Shown in pieces: positions 2,085-11,282 of a stretch of DNA of 12,824 nucleotides. Under the pieces are notes generated by a model that had not been told where the DNA came from, ran no database searches, and worked only from the letters and a program-made list of their open reading frames with translations. The translations under genes were made by a program, and so were the position numbers. Source of the DNA: a virus. Taxonomy: Duplodnaviria; Heunggongvirae; Uroviricota; Caudoviricetes. The DNA lies in IMG/VR virus record IMGVR_UViG_2740892209_000012. One strand, given 5' to 3'. Within the stretch, counting starts at the first letter, position 1. Every line of letters begins with the position of its first letter.

Positions 2085-3371
2085 ATGAATACTGGATATT
2101 CTCCCGAACAAGGGCGGGGCTTCGTTCGTCCTGAAAAACAGAATCTGCAAAATTTTGCCGAAATTATTCCGGTTATTTCCGGCCTTACTGGCGGGAGTGA
2201 AACCAATATTGTTAACGCCAGAGCGTTGCAGATGTTTGATGATAAAAAGGGAGTAAATTTAACTTACACCCCTGACGGCAATCAGAATATGAGCATTATC
2301 TCTGAGTCAGGTTTCTACAAACTAATAAAAACAAAAAGCGCCCCGTTGCCGGAGCGCCTTTGTGAACAATTAACCTACTGCGCAAAAAATGAATCTGAGC
2401 AGTGGGATTATATCAACCATGTGGAGAAGCGCCACAATTGCCGAATAACGGGCAAAACAAAGGCCACCCGCTACAGTGGCCCCTCGACACAAGCTACACG
2501 TTATCCCCAACGCATGAGCATTGCCAACAATGCCACATTTGCGGCTGGTGGGCAATGCAATCAGTCTGGTTCAGTTCGTTGCCATACCTGCAATGAGCGC
2601 TTTTCCCTGTACTCTTTAAGGAATTGCTCAAGGGCAAAAGCACATGGCGCGAATCTTTCTGATTCATGCTCTATCTTTCTGCGCCGTCTTTTCCGTGCCG
2701 GTGATAATGTTTTGGTCAATTCTTTATCGGTCATTGTGTTGTCCTGCATAGCAATGCGCCGTAGTTACTCACACCACGGCGCTGGTGATGGTTACTCCTG
2801 CTCTTTGGCCTTGCGGCGCTGGCGGCGTTTGATTTCGCCGCGCATGGCTGCGTTTATAAACTGTCCCGTGCTTTCGCCTTCTTCTTTCACGTTCTCCATG
2901 CCTTCAATAATTTCATGGGCAATACGTGCAGTTACAGATTGTGATTTTGCATTCTTTGGACCCGTTGCCATGTTTAACCCCTCATGTTTTTGGTGTAAGA
3001 CAATATACACGAAAAAAAAATATTTTGAAGGGTTGGCGTGTAAGACACCATTGTTTTACATTGTGTCTTACACCTTATTGATGAAAGGCACAGAAACGAC
3101 GAAACCCCGCACTGTAGGAGCAGTAACGGGGCTTCTAACCACCAACGATAGCAACAGTATCGAGGTAGCTATGAGAAATCATACCACACACCCGAAAGGG
3201 CGGGACTCGCACAACCTGAATAAATACATCTGGCGTTTTATCGCCCTGAGCACGGCACAACCGCGCGTGATTACCATTGAGGCCACCAGCGAACAGGAAG
3301 CACGCCAGCAATCTCCGGCTGGCTGCGTGATGGTATTTGCTGCCCGTATTCGTCAGGGGGTAGGCTTATGA
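2085..3371 (+). CDS. Questionable 428-codon open frame; probably not one gene. Only the N-terminal ~85 codons look protein-like (BRO-N/antirepressor-like ISESGFYKLI motif)
   Basis: No stop for 1287 nt, but the central part is Cys/Ser/Arg/Leu-rich junk-like translation, runs antisense to a well-supported small minus-strand gene (2792-2971), and reads through an AT-rich operator/promoter region (2993-3080). The 3' end coincides with the Icd-like ORF starting at 3171. Confidence 0.2.
   Translation: MNTGYSPEQGRGFVRPEKQNLQNFAEIIPVISGLTGGSETNIVNARALQMFDDKKGVNLTYTPDGNQNMSIISESGFYKLIKTKSAPLPERLCEQLTYCAKNESEQWDYINHVEKRHNCRITGKTKATRYSGPSTQATRYPQRMSIANNATFAAGGQCNQSGSVRCHTCNERFSLYSLRNCSRAKAHGANLSDSCSIFLRRLFRAGDNVLVNSLSVIVLSCIAMRRSYSHHGAGDGYSCSLALRRWRRLISPRMAAFINCPVLSPSSFTFSMPSIISWAIRAVTDCDFAFFGPVAMFNPSCFWCKTIYTKKKYFEGLACKTPLFYIVSYTLLMKGTETTKPRTVGAVTGLLTTNDSNSIEVAMRNHTTHPKGRDSHNLNKYIWRFIALSTAQPRVITIEATSEQEARQQSPAGCVMVFAARIRQGVGL
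2324..2357 (-). terminator. Candidate intrinsic terminator for leftward transcription
   Basis: Stem GCGCCCCG (2338-2345) / CGGAGCGC (2350-2357), loop TTGC; on the minus strand it is followed by TTTTTGTTTTTATT (complement of 2324-2337). Confidence 0.35.
2792..2971 (-). CDS. Small basic hypothetical protein (59 aa), candidate autoregulated regulator
   Basis: Minus-strand ATG at 2971 preceded by GAGGGG Shine-Dalgarno (6-nt spacing); protein-like K/E-rich composition (MATGPKNAKSQSVTARIAHEIIEG...KRRQRRKAKEQE); promoter-like -35 TTCAAA / -10 TATATT upstream with a GTGTAAGACA operator-like repeat overlapping the -10/start region. Confidence 0.5.
   Translation of the reverse strand: MATGPKNAKSQSVTARIAHEIIEGMENVKEEGESTGQFINAAMRGEIKRRQRRKAKEQE
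2993..3073. promoter_or_regulatory. Divergent promoter/operator region with three GTGTAAGACA half-sites
   Basis: GTGTAAGACA at 2993-3002; perfect 11-bp inverted repeat GTGTAAGACAC (3038-3048) / GTGTCTTACAC (3063-3073) with a 14-bp spacer; lies between the minus-strand small gene and the plus-strand Icd-like ORF; -35-like TTTACA at 3055-3060 on the plus strand. Confidence 0.55.
3171..3371 (+). CDS. Icd-like small protein (host cell division inhibitor-like family seen in P1/P4-type immunity regions)
   Basis: ATG 3171 preceded by GAGG (5-nt spacing); 66 aa; the YIWRFIALSTAQPRVITIEATSEQEARQQSPAGCVMVFAARIR pattern resembles recalled Icd-like proteins; stop overlaps the next start (ATGA at 3368-3371). 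Confidence 0.45.
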   Translation: MRNHTTHPKGRDSHNLNKYIWRFIALSTAQPRVITIEATSEQEARQQSPAGCVMVFAARIRQGVGL

Positions 3372-4343: not shown

Positions 4344-6088
4344 AACTGGCACCGAACGTAAAAAAACAACCACGCGGAATAAAACACAAAGACACAGAGG
4401 TAATTATTTTCGCGGGTAGTGATGCGTGGTCACATGCAAAACAGTGGCAGGAGCAGGACGGCCCCGCATCCGGCGATAATGTGCCGCCTGTGTGGCTTGG
4501 GCCAAATCAGCTTGCCGAACTTGATGCGCTGAAAATTGTTCCGGATGGGAAAAAGCGCGTAAGGCTGTACCAGGCCGGAGAACTGGATTTGGTGGAGACC
4601 AAAAAGATTGGTCAGAAGCTGGCGGCGGCAGATATTCAGGACGCAAATTTTTACCCCGAAGGAATGCACGTCCAGAAGTGTGAAAACTGGCGGCGCTATC
4701 TGAATGCTGAGCGTGAAAATATTGCCGCAGGGCTTACCATGCCGGAGCAGAAAAATACGCAACTGGCACAAATGGCAGACAGTGAGCGCGCGCAGCTGCT
4801 TGCCGAGCGCTTTGATGGCGTTTGTGTGCATCCTGAAAGTGAAATCGTTCACGTATGGCGCGGCGGGGTATGGTGTCCGGTCAGCACAATGGAGCTGAGC
4901 CGCGAAATGGTGGCGATCTATTCAGAGCACAGGGCCACTTTCAGCAAGCGCGTAATCAATAACGCCGTGGAAGCGTTAAAAGTTATTGCCGAACCAATGG
5001 GCGAGCCGTCCGGCTATTTGCTGCCGTTCGCCAATGGTGCGCTTGACCTGAAAACGGGGGAATTTTCCCCGCACACGCCGGAGAACTGGATCACCACGCA
5101 CAACGGCATTGAGTACACGCCACCAGCACCAGGGGAGAACATCCGCGATAACGCGCCAAACTTTCATAAATGGCTTAAGCACGCAGCCGGAAAAGACCCG
5201 CGCAAGATGATGCGTATATGTGCCGCGCTGTACATGATTATGGCGAACCGGTACGACTGGCAGATGTTTATTGAGGCCACCGGAGACGGCGGGAGCGGTA
5301 AAAGTACATTCACACACATAGCCAGCCTTCTGGCAGGGAAACAGAACACGGTAAGCGCTGAAATGACATCGCTTGATGATGCTGGTGGACGTGCGCAGGT
5401 TGTCGGGAGTCGTCTTATCGTCCTGGCTGACCAGCCGAAATATACAGGCGAAGGAACGGGCATCAAGAAAATCACGGGCGGTGACCCCGTGGAAATTAAC
5501 CCGAAATACGAAAAGCGTTTCACGGCTGTAATCAGGGCGGTGGTGCTGGCGACCAACAATAACCCGATGATATTCACCGAACGGGCCGGAGGTGTGGCAC
5601 GTCGTCGCGTGATTTTCCGTTTCGACAATATCGTCAGTGAGGCCGAAAAAGACAGGGAGCTACCGGAAAAGATCGCGGCTGAAATCCCTGTCATTATCCG
5701 CCGATTGCTGGCGAACTTTACCGACCCTGAGAAGGCACGGGCTTTACTACTGGAACAGCGTGACGGTGATGAAGCACTGGCAATAAAGCAACAGACGGAT
5801 CCGGTTATTGAGTTTTGCCAGTTCCTGAATTTTCTGGAGGAAGCGCGCGGCCTGATGATGGGGGGCGGTGGCGATTCAGTGAAGTACACGACCAGGAACA
5901 GCCTTTACCGCGTCTATCTGGCGTTTATGGCATACGCAGGCAGGAGCAAACCGCTAAACGTAAATGACTTTGGAAAGGCTATGAAGCCTGCCGCAAAAGT
6001 TTACGGACATGAATATATTACGCGGAAAGTTAAGGGGGTAACGCAGACTAACGCAATAACAACAGACGAGTGCGACGCGTTTTTATAA
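4340..6088 (+). CDS. Primase/replication initiator with D5_N-like and SF3-helicase P-loop domains (P4 alpha C-terminal type; PICI pri-rep-like)
   Basis: 582-aa ORF; FANGALDLKTGEF motif (D5_N-like), Walker A GDGGSGKST, Walker B-like RLIVLADQ; immediately followed by an iteron array. Confidence 0.9.
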   Translation: MKLAPNVKKQPRGIKHKDTEVIIFAGSDAWSHAKQWQEQDGPASGDNVPPVWLGPNQLAELDALKIVPDGKKRVRLYQAGELDLVETKKIGQKLAAADIQDANFYPEGMHVQKCENWRRYLNAERENIAAGLTMPEQKNTQLAQMADSERAQLLAERFDGVCVHPESEIVHVWRGGVWCPVSTMELSREMVAIYSEHRATFSKRVINNAVEALKVIAEPMGEPSGYLLPFANGALDLKTGEFSPHTPENWITTHNGIEYTPPAPGENIRDNAPNFHKWLKHAAGKDPRKMMRICAALYMIMANRYDWQMFIEATGDGGSGKSTFTHIASLLAGKQNTVSAEMTSLDDAGGRAQVVGSRLIVLADQPKYTGEGTGIKKITGGDPVEINPKYEKRFTAVIRAVVLATNNNPMIFTERAGGVARRRVIFRFDNIVSEAEKDRELPEKIAAEIPVIIRRLLANFTDPEKARALLLEQRDGDEALAIKQQTDPVIEFCQFLNFLEEARGLMMGGGGDSVKYTTRNSLYRVYLAFMAYAGRSKPLNVNDFGKAMKPAAKVYGHEYITRKVKGVTQTNAITTDECDAFL

Positions 6089-6102
6089 TTTTTTGTAATT
6101 GC

Positions 6103-6328
6103 TGTCTACCCTGTCTACCTGAGTAAAGAAAAATACATTTAATTCAGTGCATTAAGTTAGGTAGATAGCCTTTTTTTACTGTCTACCCACTATCTACCCT
6201 CTCTACCTGATTTTACCTGAATCAGACAGGGAGGTAGACACGGGGTAGATAGTGGATAAAAGCACTCTACCCCGCTGAAAGCCGCGCCATTACTGGCATG
6301 AGGGCCACTAAGGTAGATAAGGTAGACA
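6103..6328. repeat. Iteron-type replication origin
   Basis: About 11 copies of TGTCTACC / TATCTACC / CTCTACC and the inverse GGTAGACA / GGTAGATA in both orientations (e.g. 6103-6110, 6112-6119, 6160-6168, 6180-6188, 6191-6199, 6233-6240, 6244-6252, 6312-6319, 6321-6328) around an AT-rich spacer, directly downstream of the replication protein gene. Confidence 0.7.
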
Positions 6329-6376
6329 AGGGGAGGCACAACTCAAAACTTTTTAAACGAGGGGGTAAAAATAAAT

Positions 6377-6538
6377 ATGCACACTTCAGGGAAATTTAAT
6401 AAATCACTCAAAAAACGCAGAGACAGAACAGAACCGAAATATCGCGCGTTAGACATGACAGAGCACGCTTTAAAGGTGGCAATCAGAACGATAGACCGCC
6501 ACGCGGGGGAGGATACGCGAAAGCACATCCCGAACTGA
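6377..6538 (+). CDS. Possible small basic protein (53 aa), below the ORF-track size cutoff
   Basis: ATG 6377 preceded by GAGGGGG; a second 34-codon ORF (6550-6654) ends in an ATGA overlap with the ssb start. Both are speculative. Confidence 0.3.
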   Translation: MHTSGKFNKSLKKRRDRTEPKYRALDMTEHALKVAIRTIDRHAGEDTRKHIPN

Positions 6539-7080: not shown

Positions 7081-7102
7081 GAGACAGAAGCCGGAGCAAT
7101 CC
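7081..7102 (+). terminator. Rho-independent terminator after ssb
   Basis: GCCGGA-GCAA-TCCGGC hairpin followed by TTTTTT. Confidence 0.7.
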
Positions 7103-7160
7103 GGCTTTTTTACGGGTCCTCCTGGCGGGGTGGGCCTGAACACGGGGCGGGAAGCGCGGA
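7103..7160 (+). other. Degenerate cos-like sequence (pseudo-cosQ/cosN), paralogous to the 9530-9606 region
   Basis: ACGGGTCCTCCTGG followed by GGGCGGGAAGCG (8 of 12 matches to cosN) and CGG-AAAAAAGCG; the preceding hairpin is near-identical to the one at 9530-9545. Confidence 0.35.
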
Positions 7161-7488: not shown

Positions 7489-7695
7489 ATGGCTGAAGAG
7501 AAAAAAGGCGGTGTTTCGGTGTACATAAGCCCCGAAATCGTGGAGGTGCTCAAGCAGCGCCACAAAAAAAACTATGAGGCTGGCGTGGCGGCTGGACTGG
7601 ATCCGCTGATGACGCCGGAGCCGTCGATAGGTTCACTTGTACGCTCTTATTTACTTGCGGCGCTTGGGATGCATAAAAATTATGGGGGTGAATAA
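7489..7695 (+). CDS. Small hypothetical protein (68 aa), possibly ribbon-helix-helix-like, first gene of the capsid operon
   Basis: ATG 7489 with AGAGGA upstream; GVSVYISPEIVEVLKQ resembles an RHH beta-strand/helix start; stop overlaps the MCP start (TAATG). Confidence 0.55.
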   Translation: MAEEKKGGVSVYISPEIVEVLKQRHKKNYEAGVAAGLDPLMTPEPSIGSLVRSYLLAALGMHKNYGGE

Positions 7696-8750
7696 TGGCA
7701 GGCAAAGCAACGGCACTTAACACTAACCAGCTTTTCATGTACCTGAATCGCGGGGATATTGCGGATTTTAAATTCAGCCCTCTGTTTACTACGCTGTTTT
7801 TCCCGAACGTGGCGACATTCAGCACGCAAAACATCATGCTGGATACCCTGGACATTGAAGAAGTCACCATGTCGGCGTTTTGTTCGCCTATGGTGGGTAG
7901 CCAGGTTCAGCGCGATAAAGGGTACGAAACCAGCACGATTAAACCTGGCTACATGAAGCCAAAGCACGAAATCGATCCAACGAAAACCATCATGCGCATG
8001 GCTGGAGAAGATCCGGCACAGCTTAACGACCCTACCTATCGCCGTATGCGCCTGATTACTGGCAATATGCGCCGCCAGATAAACGCCATAAAAGCGCGCG
8101 TGGAATGGCTGGCGGTAAATGCGGTAACGACCGGAAAAAACATCATTGAGGGCGAAGGCATAGAGCGCTATGAAATCGACTGGAAGATACCGGAAAAAAA
8201 CATCATAGAGCAGGCCGACGGGAAAAAATGGTCAGAGCAGGACAAAGAAACCCACGATCCAATCTATGATATCGAACTATACGCCGATCAGGCTGGTTGC
8301 CCCGCAAACGTCATGATTATGGGCGCTGAGGTATGGCGAACGTTACGCAGCTTTAAAAAATTCCGTGAGCTGTACGATCTTTCCCGTGGTTCAGAATCCG
8401 CCGCCGAACTGGCCTGTAAAAACCTGGGCGAAGTGGTGAGCTTTAAAGGCTATCTTGGTGATCTGGCCCTTATCGTCTATTCCGGCAAATACACTGACAG
8501 CGATGGTACCGAAAAATATTTCCTTGAGCCTGATTTGCTGGTCCTGGGCAACACCAACAATAAAGGGCTGGTGGCCTATGGTGCGATAATGGATCAGGAA
8601 GCGGTAAGAACGGGCGCAACACAAAACATGTTTTACCCGAAAAACTGGATTGAGGACGGCGATCCGGCGATTGAGTACGTGCAGACGCACAGCGCACCGC
8701 AGCCGGTTCCGGCAGATATTCGCAAATTTGTTACCGTCAAAATTGGTTAA
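7695..8750 (+). CDS. Major capsid protein, lambda gpE-like
   Basis: 351 aa; multiple blocks align with recalled lambda E (FKFSPLF..LFF, PGYMKPKHE, EDPAQLNDPTYRRMR, WSEQDK..HDP, RSFK, LVLGNT..GL..YG, YPKNW...GDPA, SAP). Confidence 0.9.
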   Translation: MAGKATALNTNQLFMYLNRGDIADFKFSPLFTTLFFPNVATFSTQNIMLDTLDIEEVTMSAFCSPMVGSQVQRDKGYETSTIKPGYMKPKHEIDPTKTIMRMAGEDPAQLNDPTYRRMRLITGNMRRQINAIKARVEWLAVNAVTTGKNIIEGEGIERYEIDWKIPEKNIIEQADGKKWSEQDKETHDPIYDIELYADQAGCPANVMIMGAEVWRTLRSFKKFRELYDLSRGSESAAELACKNLGEVVSFKGYLGDLALIVYSGKYTDSDGTEKYFLEPDLLVLGNTNNKGLVAYGAIMDQEAVRTGATQNMFYPKNWIEDGDPAIEYVQTHSAPQPVPADIRKFVTVKIG

Positions 8751-8761
8751 CGGGGGATTCT

Positions 8762-9097
8762 ATGGACACTCCATACATTGAGTTATTTGCAGGCAGTCAG
8801 CAGGTCGCCACGACGCTGGTACATTTTGCCGCTGATGCTGGCGTTATTCAGGAATTTACCCCGCTGATGCTGGCGGACAATGGCGAGTTTAAGCCGTGGG
8901 ATGGTAAGGAATCTGGCAAGGCTGTTTATCTGACCTCGTACCCTGTGGACACGTCAAAGCAGAAATCAGCACAGTGTTACAAGACGGGGATATTCAATAT
9001 TGCCGCCGTTAACTGGCCTGAGAGCGTCGACACCGATGCGAAAAAATGCGCCGCCTTTGCGGGTTCCGGCGTATCCGTTCAGCCGCTGGCCCGATAA
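8762..9097 (+). CDS. Head decoration protein, lambda gpD-like
   Basis: 111 aa; C-terminal YKTGIFNIAAVNWPESVDTDAKKCAAFAGSGVSVQ resembles lambda D ([34 protein letters not shown]); GGGGGA Shine-Dalgarno; lies downstream of the E-like gene (order reversed relative to lambda). Confidence 0.8.
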   Translation: MDTPYIELFAGSQQVATTLVHFAADAGVIQEFTPLMLADNGEFKPWDGKESGKAVYLTSYPVDTSKQKSAQCYKTGIFNIAAVNWPESVDTDAKKCAAFAGSGVSVQPLAR

Positions 9098-9109: not shown

Positions 9110-9523
9110 ATGGCAACGAATGAAAGCATCATGACGCTACCGCTGGCGAGTAAATTTAAAGCCGAAGCGCGGGCAATGGCTGACAGAGGTTTATCAACCT
9201 ATGAGGCCGTATATCAACTAAACAAACTGGAAGAGCAGGACAAGCCGCGCGCTGATGCGATTATGGCGCTTCATGAGCATAAAGACTATCAGCCGCTGTT
9301 GCGTGCAATGGCAAACGTGCCTTGTATCGATGTTGGTACGGCTAAAAGCATCCTTAGCATGACCATAGAGCAGGAGCGCCCAAAGGTTGCACCAGAGCTT
9401 ACCGCAGCCTTTGAAAACTTTATGGACATGCACAGCCCGCAAGCCGTATCAGCTGGCATGGCATACGATGGCAGAAACCAGGGCGATGACGGCGACATCG
9501 ATCGCATACTGAAAACCATCTGA
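9110..9523 (+). CDS. Hypothetical protein (137 aa), last gene of the capsid operon
   Basis: ATG 9110 with AGGGGGAA Shine-Dalgarno; protein-like composition; followed by a strong terminator. No family recognised. Confidence 0.7.
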   Translation: MATNESIMTLPLASKFKAEARAMADRGLSTYEAVYQLNKLEEQDKPRADAIMALHEHKDYQPLLRAMANVPCIDVGTAKSILSMTIEQERPKVAPELTAAFENFMDMHSPQAVSAGMAYDGRNQGDDGDIDRILKTI

Positions 9524-9529
9524 GACAAG

Positions 9530-9552
9530 GCCGGAGAAATCCGGCTTTTTTT
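9530..9552 (+). terminator. Rho-independent terminator immediately upstream of cos
   Basis: GCCGGA-GAAA-TCCGGC hairpin followed by TTTTTTT. Confidence 0.7.
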
Positions 9553-9640
9553 ACGGGTCCTTTCCGGCATATGGACCCGTTACGGGGCGGCGACCTCGCG
9601 GTTTTTCGCTATTTATGAGCCTTTTCAGGGGGGTGGTGGT
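9553..9640 (+). other. Lambda-type cohesive end site (cosQ-cosN-proximal cosB), forward orientation
   Basis: ACGGGTCCTTTCCGG (cosQ-like, matches recalled lambda right end), GTTACG then GGGCGGCGACCT (9585-9596, identical to the lambda 12-nt cohesive end), then CGCGGTTTTTCGCTATTTATGA (near-identical to the lambda left end start); located about 135 bp upstream of the Nu1-like gene. Confidence 0.8.
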
Positions 9641-9729
9641 GGTTTTGTTGTTTGCTCTATCTTTATGAATGAAAAGGGAAAGATGCAAACAATACACCAA
9701 CCTGAAGCAGTAATTAAGTTGGTGTATTA

Positions 9730-10272
9730 ATGAAATCGCACCTGATGAACAAAAAAAACATGGCGAAAAGCTGCCGTGTAAGTGCGACAGCGTTCGACAA
9801 GTGGGGAGTGACTCCCGTTGAACGTAAAGGCCGTGAGGCGTTTTACGATGTTGCCAGCGTGATAGACAATAGGGTTAACAATGCAATTAGCCAGCTTACA
9901 AACGACAAAGGCGATATTGATGATGATGAACTCTTACGAGTCAGGATCAGATTACTGACAGCACAGGCGGAGGCGCAGGAACTTAAAAACGAGCGCGATC
10001 GCGGTGACGTGATTGATACTGAGTTTTGCCTGTACGCGCTTTCAAAGCTGGCGAGTCAGATTTCATCAATCATGGACAGCCTCCCGCTTACTATGCAAAG
10101 GAGCTTCCCACAGATTACCCCCGCCATGCTGGATAGGCTTAAAAGGGAAGTGGTTAAAGCCTGTAATGCCAGTGCCAGAGTTGCCGACAACCTCCCACAG
10201 ATACTGGCTGATTACTTGAAAGAAACAACCGGAAACGTACCGGAAAAGTTGCTACAGAAGAAAGGCGAGTAA
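9730..10272 (+). CDS. Terminase small subunit, lambda Nu1-like
   Basis: 180 aa; LTAQAEAQELKNERDRGDVIDTEFCLYALSKLASQISSIMDSLPLTMQRSFPQ aligns with recalled lambda Nu1 (LTRAQADAQELKNARDSAEVVETAFCTFVLSRIAGEIASILDGLPLSVQRRFPE); the N-terminal NKK... region matches the Nu1 N-terminus; start may be ATG 9730 or ATG 9745. Confidence 0.85.
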   Translation: MKSHLMNKKNMAKSCRVSATAFDKWGVTPVERKGREAFYDVASVIDNRVNNAISQLTNDKGDIDDDELLRVRIRLLTAQAEAQELKNERDRGDVIDTEFCLYALSKLASQISSIMDSLPLTMQRSFPQITPAMLDRLKREVVKACNASARVADNLPQILADYLKETTGNVPEKLLQKKGE

Positions 10273-10977: not shown

Positions 10978-11225
10978 ACAATCCCCCATTGGGGGAGGCT
11001 GGGCGGCCTGCTGTGGGCTTTTCCACCATTGGTGGAAAGGCGCACATCTGGATCATCATTACGGTGATCAAGGGTATGTAAAACCCACCAGCCTGATTGA
11101 CATTTAACCGGAAAAAAGCCAGGTAGCCCCGTTATGGGGATCCCCATATCGACATTAACGCCCCTCATGAATTGGCGCGCTTCCCCCTGGAAAGATGACC
11201 CGCCTGTATATTTCTTGTGTCTATT

Positions 11226-11282
11226 TGTTCCACGTTGTTTCATACAGTGCAACGATCGGTGTAGTTAATGGTGTAGTCAATT
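11226..11282. repeat. attR: right copy of attachment-site direct repeat
   Basis: 11247-11282 matches 192-227 (35 of 36); the upstream block 11226-11238 matches 171-183. Confidence 0.75.

Follow-up and report, generated by a model that had tools for sequence, protein, structure and literature searches.

A lambda-type cos site as the probable setting of the inverted repeat before terS in an Escherichia coli phage satellite

What is the role of a perfect inverted repeat and a very short open reading frame (ORF) that stand directly before a small terminase gene, terS, in DNA that carries no gene for the large terminase, TerL? The question is raised by a stretch of 12,824 nucleotides from the Caudoviricetes record IMGVR_UViG_2740892209_000012 of IMG/VR (the window; positions are counted from its first base), which contains a phage satellite of the phage-inducible chromosomal island (PICI) type, approximately 11 kb in length. 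An earlier note, made by reading the bases of the window, had described the ORF as a leader and the repeat as a hairpin overlapping the terS start, and had suggested translational coupling or structure-controlled expression. Our analysis leads to a different answer. The segment 9553–9728 is probably a cos site of the lambda type, which the note overlooked; most likely it is the cos of the satellite itself, with the gene at 9730–10272 encoding the cognate small terminase (TerS) and the two arms of the repeat corresponding to the R2 and R1 sites. The features on which this reading is built are the following, with 9585 taken as base pair (bp) 1 of cos.

9553–9566, plus strand: cosQ-like block, CGGGTCCTTTCCGG, as far upstream of cosN as in lambda
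9585–9596, plus strand: cosN, GGGCGGCGACCT, the exact 12-nt cohesive end of lambda (lambda bp 1–12)
9631–9655, plus strand: R3-like element, GGGTGGTGGTGGTTTTGTTGTTTGC, bp 47–71, GGT/GTT-rich (lambda R3, bp 50–65)
9658–9670, strand unassigned: I1-like block, TATCTTTATGAAT, bp 74–86, with ATG 9665 inside it
9685–9702, minus strand: R2-like element, bp 101–118, inverted with respect to R3 and including the left hairpin arm, 9691–9701
9718–9728, plus strand: R1-like element, bp 134–144, the right hairpin arm and a perfect inverted copy of R2
9730–10272, plus strand: terS, encoding 180 amino acids (aa) of the Nu1/N15-gp1 type, with a winged-helix DNA-binding region at the N-terminus, a coiled middle part and a Nu1-like tail at the C-terminus

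The cosQ-like block is near-invariant in 72 distinct relatives and is identical in the phages PhiR5_1 and PhiR46_1. The flanks of cosN match lambda from the preceding ACG to about bp 34, and cleavage would be expected at 9585–9596. Across cosQ and cosN the window is 95.8% identical to PhiR5_1, its nearest match in this segment. Matches to phage databases around cos are restricted to 9548–9630; cosQ–cosN is therefore phage-like, and the downstream cosB and terS are island-specific. The cosN 12-mer itself varies across otherwise similar islands (loci L002–L123) and occurs in at least 12 versions, among them GGGCGTCAGGCG, GGGCGGAAGGCG and GGGCGGCAGACG, beside a constant cosB. One of these variants, GGGCGGAAGGCG, is that of the sequenced lambda-like phage PhiR46_1. 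The differences between islands, together with this match, suggest that the cut-site cassette tracks the helper phage and that cosB stays private to the island.

The cosB of lambda is laid out with R3 at bp 50–65, an inverted R2 at bp 109–124 and R1 at bp 151–166 (PMC9026076). The order and orientation of the island elements and their distances from cosN mirror this layout, and for this reason the hairpin arms are best taken to occupy the places of R2 and R1 in a cosB of lambda style. The R3 of phage N15 has been mapped genetically to bp 48–60, GAGGTTGTTGTTT (PMC9026076); the island R3 resembles this sequence, and its position matches those of both lambda and N15 R3. An inverted match of 78% also links the R3-like element to 9685–9702. 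The I1-like block occupies the same bp 74–86 as TAACTTAATGTTT in lambda, and is a possible bend site for integration host factor (IHF). Within the R1-like element, GGTG (9721–9724) is a probable weak Shine-Dalgarno (SD) sequence for terS, with a duplex energy of −5.3 kcal/mol. We infer that TerS would bind at the R sites and that IHF would be used at the I1-like block.

The inverted repeat consists of AATACACCAAC (9691–9701) and GTTGGTGTATT (9718–9728), which are complementary at 11 of 11 positions across a loop of 16 nt. The earlier note was correct in calling it perfect, and one pair short in giving its length as 10 bp. When the intergenic region is shuffled with its dinucleotides kept, a repeat of equal kind arises in 0.13% of cases, and as RNA the segment is predicted to fold at −19.9 kcal/mol (z = −4.2). 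The R2 and R1 of lambda likewise form a perfect inverted repeat, of 16 bp, whose predicted RNA fold reaches −38 kcal/mol (z = −4.3).

The likeness to lambda therefore extends over the whole locus: the 12-nt cohesive end is identical and a cosQ block is shared, R3, the I1-like block, inverted R2 and direct R1 follow in the same order and orientation at similar distances from cosN, terS begins just after cosB, and the homology between the island TerS and Nu1 is full-length. The two loci differ in that the R-site sequences are unrelated (GGT/GTT-rich in the island, CGTTTCC in lambda), the island cosB is more compact, with terS beginning at bp 146 rather than at bp 191 as in lambda, the repeat is 11 rather than 16 bp long, and the island TerS is 35% identical to its lambda counterpart, has a shorter wing and is not followed by a gpA gene.

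We compared 120 cos–terS loci, 72 of them distinct, which were gathered by protein look-ups and by a DNA-pattern scan; 98 belong to an E. coli clade and 22 to a sister clade (Enterobacter/Citrobacter/Kosakonia). The DNA pattern fixes 21 bases, nine of them in R3, a bias from which the loci gathered by way of the protein do not suffer. An earlier search of genome contigs for the TerS protein had given 220 pattern matches, none of which was confirmed by tblastn. Across the compared loci, those found by protein alone included, the cores of R3 and R2 are kept with no insertion or deletion between them, and the spacer bases are variable. The conservation of R3, the I1-like block and R2 holds in the sister clade as well, where TerS is approximately 58% identical to that of the island. 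The R2 core, CAATACACC[A/C]AC, is kept in both clades, as is a TAT...ATGA.T pattern in the I1-like block, the bases adjacent to which vary. The right arm behaves differently. The perfect repeat is found in 31 of the 98 E. coli-clade loci (31 of 120 overall); the other right arms of this clade carry three to four mismatches (GTGGGGATATT, GTTGTGGTATC, GTTGGGATATT), and the sister clade has no right arm but a plain Shine-Dalgarno sequence in its place, e.g. AGAGGTGAAAATG.

This pattern of change bears directly on whether the repeat acts as RNA or as DNA. Covarying pairs are absent from a set of 16 distinct sequences, in which 7 of the 11 pairs change through breakage alone and the central pair persists in 2. 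The predicted fold is worth −16 to −17 kcal/mol in the type found in the window, compared with −3.2 to −12.2 kcal/mol (most between −3 and −9) in the other subtypes. The arms pair in 74% of the cells scored, compared with 27–43% in shifted controls, a level in keeping with a protein-binding motif that has degenerated. The RNA helix thus lacks evolutionary support, and the arms are best read as double-stranded DNA sites rather than as mRNA structure.

The protein encoded by terS is the counterpart of these sites. Its homology to Nu1, which the earlier note had proposed, is borne out by profile search: Pfam PF07471 (Phage_Nu1) matches with 83 bits (cut-off 30) and phrog_57 with E = 3e-53. BLASTP aligns it with lambda Nu1 from residue 6, with 35% of 179 aligned residues identical (E = 2e-34), and its best phage relative is N15 gp1, with 46% identity. 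In the PDB, the solved DNA-binding domain of lambda TerS (6hn7_B) is matched by a profile of the family (E = 0.008); phmmer with the single TerS sequence against the PDB returned noise only. An AlphaFold2 model based on a 13-sequence alignment has the beta-alpha-alpha-wing-alpha order at low confidence, with a predicted local distance difference test (pLDDT) score of 59 and a predicted template modelling (pTM) score of 0.29. For the start of the gene at ATG 9730, M1 and L5-x-N7-K8 are kept in the Enterobacter/Citrobacter relatives and in N15 gp1, and the Enterobacter/Citrobacter relatives have Leu at position 6; M6 and M11 were considered as the true start and rejected from the alignment of relatives. 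The recognition-helix residues T20–G26 (TAFDKWG) are invariant in both clades and near-identical in N15 gp1 (QAFDKWG), in agreement with the conservation of R3 and R2. TerS is a mosaic: residues 1–46 are closest to N15 gp1 (26/42 identical, 62%), and residues 116–180 are closest to the Nu1 of PhiR5_1 (28/50 identical, 56%), the tails of lambda and N15 scoring lower. This tail aligns with Nu1 residues ~140–180.

As the earlier note had stated, the window contains no TerL gene, and none stands beside the island terS in any of 125 related loci. Genes similar to gpA occur in 6 of the 125: two lie beside a lambda-type Nu1, and the remaining four belong to adjacent prophage DNA, 9 kb or more away from the island terS. 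The absence of a large-terminase gene after terS marks it as a satellite gene. Redirection of the large terminase of a helper, as the note had supposed, is the natural reading of a Nu1-like TerS that has no TerL partner and adjoins what appears to be its own cos. The note had also named a comparison with Rpp proteins; this assignment was rejected, as a protein of 180 aa with a complete Nu1-like C-terminus falls outside the definition of Rpp.

A number of observations weigh against the assignment of cosB and of its reader. Part of the conservation of R3 and of the cosN flanks is there by construction, because the search pattern includes those bases. The likeness of R3 to R2 and R1 is weak (14/18 in one register, more than three mismatches in 12 in the register of the R2 core), and an R-motif search allowing up to three mismatches recovered R2 and R1 alone above background, and not R3. 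The R3–R2 and R2–R1 spacings are unlike those of lambda, and the I1-like block has three mismatches to the IHF consensus, a weak match. R1 is missing from the sister clade and is therefore not essential to the family, and its conservation in E. coli could come in part from a Shine-Dalgarno role. The case for binding of a helper TerL is weakened by the tail of the island TerS, which is only 37–56% identical to the phage tails. Lastly, we found no experimental study of this element in the literature.

The alternative proposed by the earlier note has to be weighed against these data. The 15-codon ORF (MQTIHQPEAVIKLVY) does run from ATG 9683 to a TAA at 9728–9730 that overlaps the terS ATG at 9730, and AGGGA (9675–9679) precedes its start by 3 nt; the duplex of this AGGGA with the anti-SD sequence is worth −5.3 kcal/mol, compared with −8.6 to −9.7 kcal/mol for the capsid genes. 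Two longer open frames cover the same region.

9615–9668, plus strand: 17-codon open frame, MSLFRGVVVVLLFALSL, spanning R3; its TGA overlaps ATG 9665
9665–9730, plus strand: 21-codon open frame, MNEKGKMQTIHQPEAVIKLVY, containing the 15-codon ORF as its 3' part and ending TAATG on the terS start

An mRNA hairpin could hide the ribosome-binding site of terS, with translation of an upstream ORF, from ATG 9683 or ATG 9665 to the terminal TAATG, opening the hairpin or coupling the two genes. Such an arrangement could coexist with a DNA-site role in the sub-lineage of the window. The stable predicted fold speaks for it, as does the fact that the sole SD-like bases for terS, themselves weak, lie inside the right arm; an SD-like AGGGA stands before ATG 9683, the frame from ATG 9665 is open in 98 of the 98 E. 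coli-clade loci with the other two frames stopped in all 21 distinct versions, and the stop/start overlap (TAATG, TGATG or ATGA) is constant. The overlap, however, follows automatically from the first bases of terS, ATGAAA, since an ORF in that frame has to stop on ATGA. ATG 9683 is present in 32 of the 120 loci, all of them among the 98 of the E. coli clade and none among the 22 of the sister clade, and the perfect repeat, present in 31 of the 120, is likewise absent from the sister clade; neither ATG 9665 nor ATG 9615 has a Shine-Dalgarno sequence. The peptide of the 21-codon frame shows 186 synonymous and 1382 non-synonymous codon differences (675 and 521 in terS), which is no better than the out-of-frame controls (292/1247 and 397/1181); the small-ORF peptide is without coding constraint. 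The helix has 7 of its 11 pairs broken in other subtypes with no compensatory changes, and Rfam gave nothing at the gathering threshold, the one match being a spurious microRNA at E = 0.15. The predicted hairpin of lambda R2/R1 is stronger still, and the lambda cosB also has small open frames: two ATG-initiated frames of ~16 codons, at bp 31–81 (across R3) and bp 82–132 (across I1–R2), which parallel the 17- and 21-codon frames of the island. We know of no function for these lambda frames. The two island frames are probably incidental by-products of the AT-rich and GGT-rich sequence of the sites. With no conserved start, no constraint on the peptide and no compensatory pairs, the proposal of translational control by a leader ORF and hairpin is not supported, and we regard an mRNA hairpin as the explanation of the repeat as unlikely.

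The repeat might instead be an operator at which a transcription factor (an island AlpA or helix-turn-helix (HTH) protein, a repressor of the helper, or TerS itself in autorepression) controls terS transcription. A perfect palindrome-like repeat right at the start of a gene would suit such a role, and a further feature upstream suggests that terS may need a promoter of its own.

9530–9551, plus strand: terminator-shaped hairpin, GCCGGAGAAATCCGGC followed by a T run, ending the capsid-gene block just before cos

This hairpin, which folds at −14.1 kcal/mol and was found as a direct repeat of 7090–7111, would cut terS off from transcription of the capsid operon in the absence of read-through. It is unlisted by a consensus terminator scan, the same scan having called cosN terminator-like. 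Related islands also carry a 127-aa AlpA-like HTH gene just upstream of cos, at the place that ORF137 (9110–9523) takes in the window. Yet no sigma-70-like promoter is predicted in 9550–9730, the layout mirrors that of lambda cosB, and the left arm is kept whichever of the two genes lies upstream, with a fixed spacing to R3 and cosN that points to a packaging site. An operator function is in our view very doubtful. That the repeat and the small ORF are both chance features of the intergenic region is hardly credible. ORFs of 15–21 codons are common in AT-rich DNA and the 15-codon ORF is lineage-specific, so that chance is the best reading for this ORF itself; for the repeat, it is contradicted by the rarity of an 11-bp perfect repeat in shuffled sequence (the 0.13% given above) and by the retention of the left arm across genera.

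If the segment is a cos site read by the island TerS, packaging could proceed as follows. A lambda-like helper, of the PhiR5_1 type for the window, would induce the island. Dimers of the island TerS would bind R3 and R2 on island concatemers, probably across a bend, as well as R1. The Nu1-like C-terminal tail of TerS would then recruit the helper TerL to the shared cosN, which this TerL would nick, so that the island concatemers are cut and packaged. Both the recruitment of TerL and the identity of the helper are deduced here from sequence resemblance. The island TerS, being complete, should replace the helper TerS rather than partner it. A broader scheme joins two of the readings. The island would run a modular hijack with a private cosB, a mosaic TerS (an N15-like head that reads this cosB and a tail matched to the TerL of one helper) and a cosQ/cosN cassette exchanged among islands to suit the lambda-like helper at hand, a hijack unlike that of Rpp, and in the sub-lineage of the window R2 and R1 would in addition form an mRNA hairpin over the weak ribosome-binding site of terS, opened by the SD-bearing upstream ORF. 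We consider this combination distinctly improbable; were it true, one sequence would serve both packaging recognition and TerS dosage.

The element that contains this locus measures 11,055 bp between imperfect direct repeats at 152–227 and 11207–11282, and adjoins phoQ. These repeats, of 76 nt with 80% identity and an identical core of ~35 nt, are probably attL and attR. By Pfam and PHROG assignments all genes of the element lie on the same strand, in the order integrase, AlpA, DUF4222 protein, D5-type primase, single-stranded DNA-binding protein (SSB), gpE-type capsid protein, gpD-type decoration protein, a 137-aa ORF and the Nu1-like gene. Co-oriented int, alpA, primase, capsid gene and terS, a length of ~10 kb, attachment-site repeats and the lack of tail and lysis genes are the marks of a Gram-negative PICI, and the element shows them all; its series int–alpA–primase–capsid gene–terS agrees with the core gene order published for PICIs of Proteobacteria, and terS and a capsid gene are among the core markers of SatelliteFinder. 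The element is widespread: approximately 530 of 5,426 complete E. coli genomes contain at least 80% of the segment 9500–10400. The same element is annotated by PGAP at other chromosomal sites, and its integration sites therefore differ, one close relative lying in tqsA (locus L001) and another beside rcnR/thiM (locus L002).

Two capsid genes of the island's own lie in 7695–9097, one for a major capsid protein of the gpE type (44% identity to lambda gpE) and one for a decoration protein of the gpD type; genes for a portal, a protease and TerL are absent from the island. A genome of 11 kb is too short to fill a head of lambda size, so that the formation of small capsids from the island capsid protein is plausible. 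Between the decoration gene and cos lies ORF137, of 137 aa. Its PHROG match (phrog_53, E = 5e-9) is to the C-terminal portion of a family of head-maturation proteases and hints at a scaffold-like protein; BLASTP found no similarity between ORF137 and lambda Nu3. Near-identical terminator-shaped hairpins, GCCGGAG[C/A]AATCCGGCTTTTTT, stand at 7090–7111, after the SSB gene, and at 9530–9551, just before cosQ. Perfect inverted repeats of 11–14 bp occur at five sites in the window, compared with 0.14 expected from shuffles. Besides the repeat before terS, these are at 1–11/41–51, 3038–3048/3063–3073, 7897–7907/7942–7952 and 7289–7302/7314–7327, the last being a 14-bp repeat (AAAAGCCCGATAAG) between the SSB gene and the capsid block. 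A program-called ORF of 428 aa at 2085–3371 is unlikely to be a real gene; in the closely related island of locus L001 this part is annotated with several short genes, one of them Icd-like.

The surroundings of terS vary among the related loci. In Enterobacter-type contigs from metagenomes and assemblies (L003–L008, ~5040–6510), terS is followed by one or two unrelated genes, a truncated gpE-type capsid gene (254 aa) and then genes of the FI and FII types, which places the island next to or inside the head region of a lambda-like prophage, perhaps as a result of recombination through the capsid gene. In loci L009–L011 a Lambda_tail_I-like gene comes next after terS. One island variant lacks terS altogether (locus L129, 3555–4150, from E. 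coli JNEC-KY203). It has the same capsid genes and cosQ–cosN as window positions 9500–9662, followed after cosN by an N15-like R3 (GGTGGTTGTTGTTTAATTG), a near-consensus IHF site (TATCTAATTGATA, one mismatch) and an inverted R2 (AAATACAACAACC), with a second, inverted cos ~480 bp further on. This variant may rely on the TerS of its helper.

Among known systems other than lambda, N15 has the closest TerS head (the 26/42 identity given above), with a near-identical recognition helix and an R3, GAGGTTGTTGTTT, like that of the island; it differs in having R3 only, in the start of gp1 at bp 89, in encoding its own TerL and in its lambda-like tail, which the island TerS does not share. The characterised mechanism among E. 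coli PICIs is that of the Rpp-type islands such as EcCICFT073, in which Rpp, a short TerS-like protein without a TerL-binding tail, acts as a heterodimer with the helper TerS, on which it relies (Fillol-Salom 2018/2019; Murialdo and Feiss 2022). These islands, likewise PICIs of Gram-negative bacteria, share with the present one a helper-like cosQ/cosN and a private cosB read by a winged-helix protein of the island, so that the island is packaged and not the phage. They differ in that Rpp lacks the tail and needs the helper TerS, whereas a complete TerS is encoded here, and in that their cosB is described as R3-only. The TerS of the pac-type Staphylococcus aureus pathogenicity islands (SaPIs) offers a further analogy, as a satellite TerS without TerL that redirects the helper TerL to satellite DNA; packaging there is by the headful from a pac site, and here would be from a cos with defined ends. 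TerS-encoding PICIs of E. coli were listed by Fillol-Salom 2018 and by SatelliteFinder, and those tested in 2018 were not transferred. Our literature searches found no description of this cosB or of a characterised TerS-encoding cos PICI, no mechanism study for TerS-encoding E. coli PICIs and no experimental report of helper mobilisation for this type.

Taken together, these results are best read as an arrangement that is tidy but largely expected, and not as a translational control device. They explain the likely packaging route of a very common E. coli satellite, which would supply a full-length TerS and a private lambda-style cosB and take from its helper nothing but the cut site and the large terminase, a route that complements the Rpp mechanism of EcCICFT073. 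The reading predicts which bases TerS would read, which helper would be used (one of the PhiR5_1 type) and that the cosN cassette would track the helper. It also carries a caution for the annotation of cos elements in general, in which inverted repeats beside terminase genes are likely to be protein-binding sites even where they give good RNA folds.

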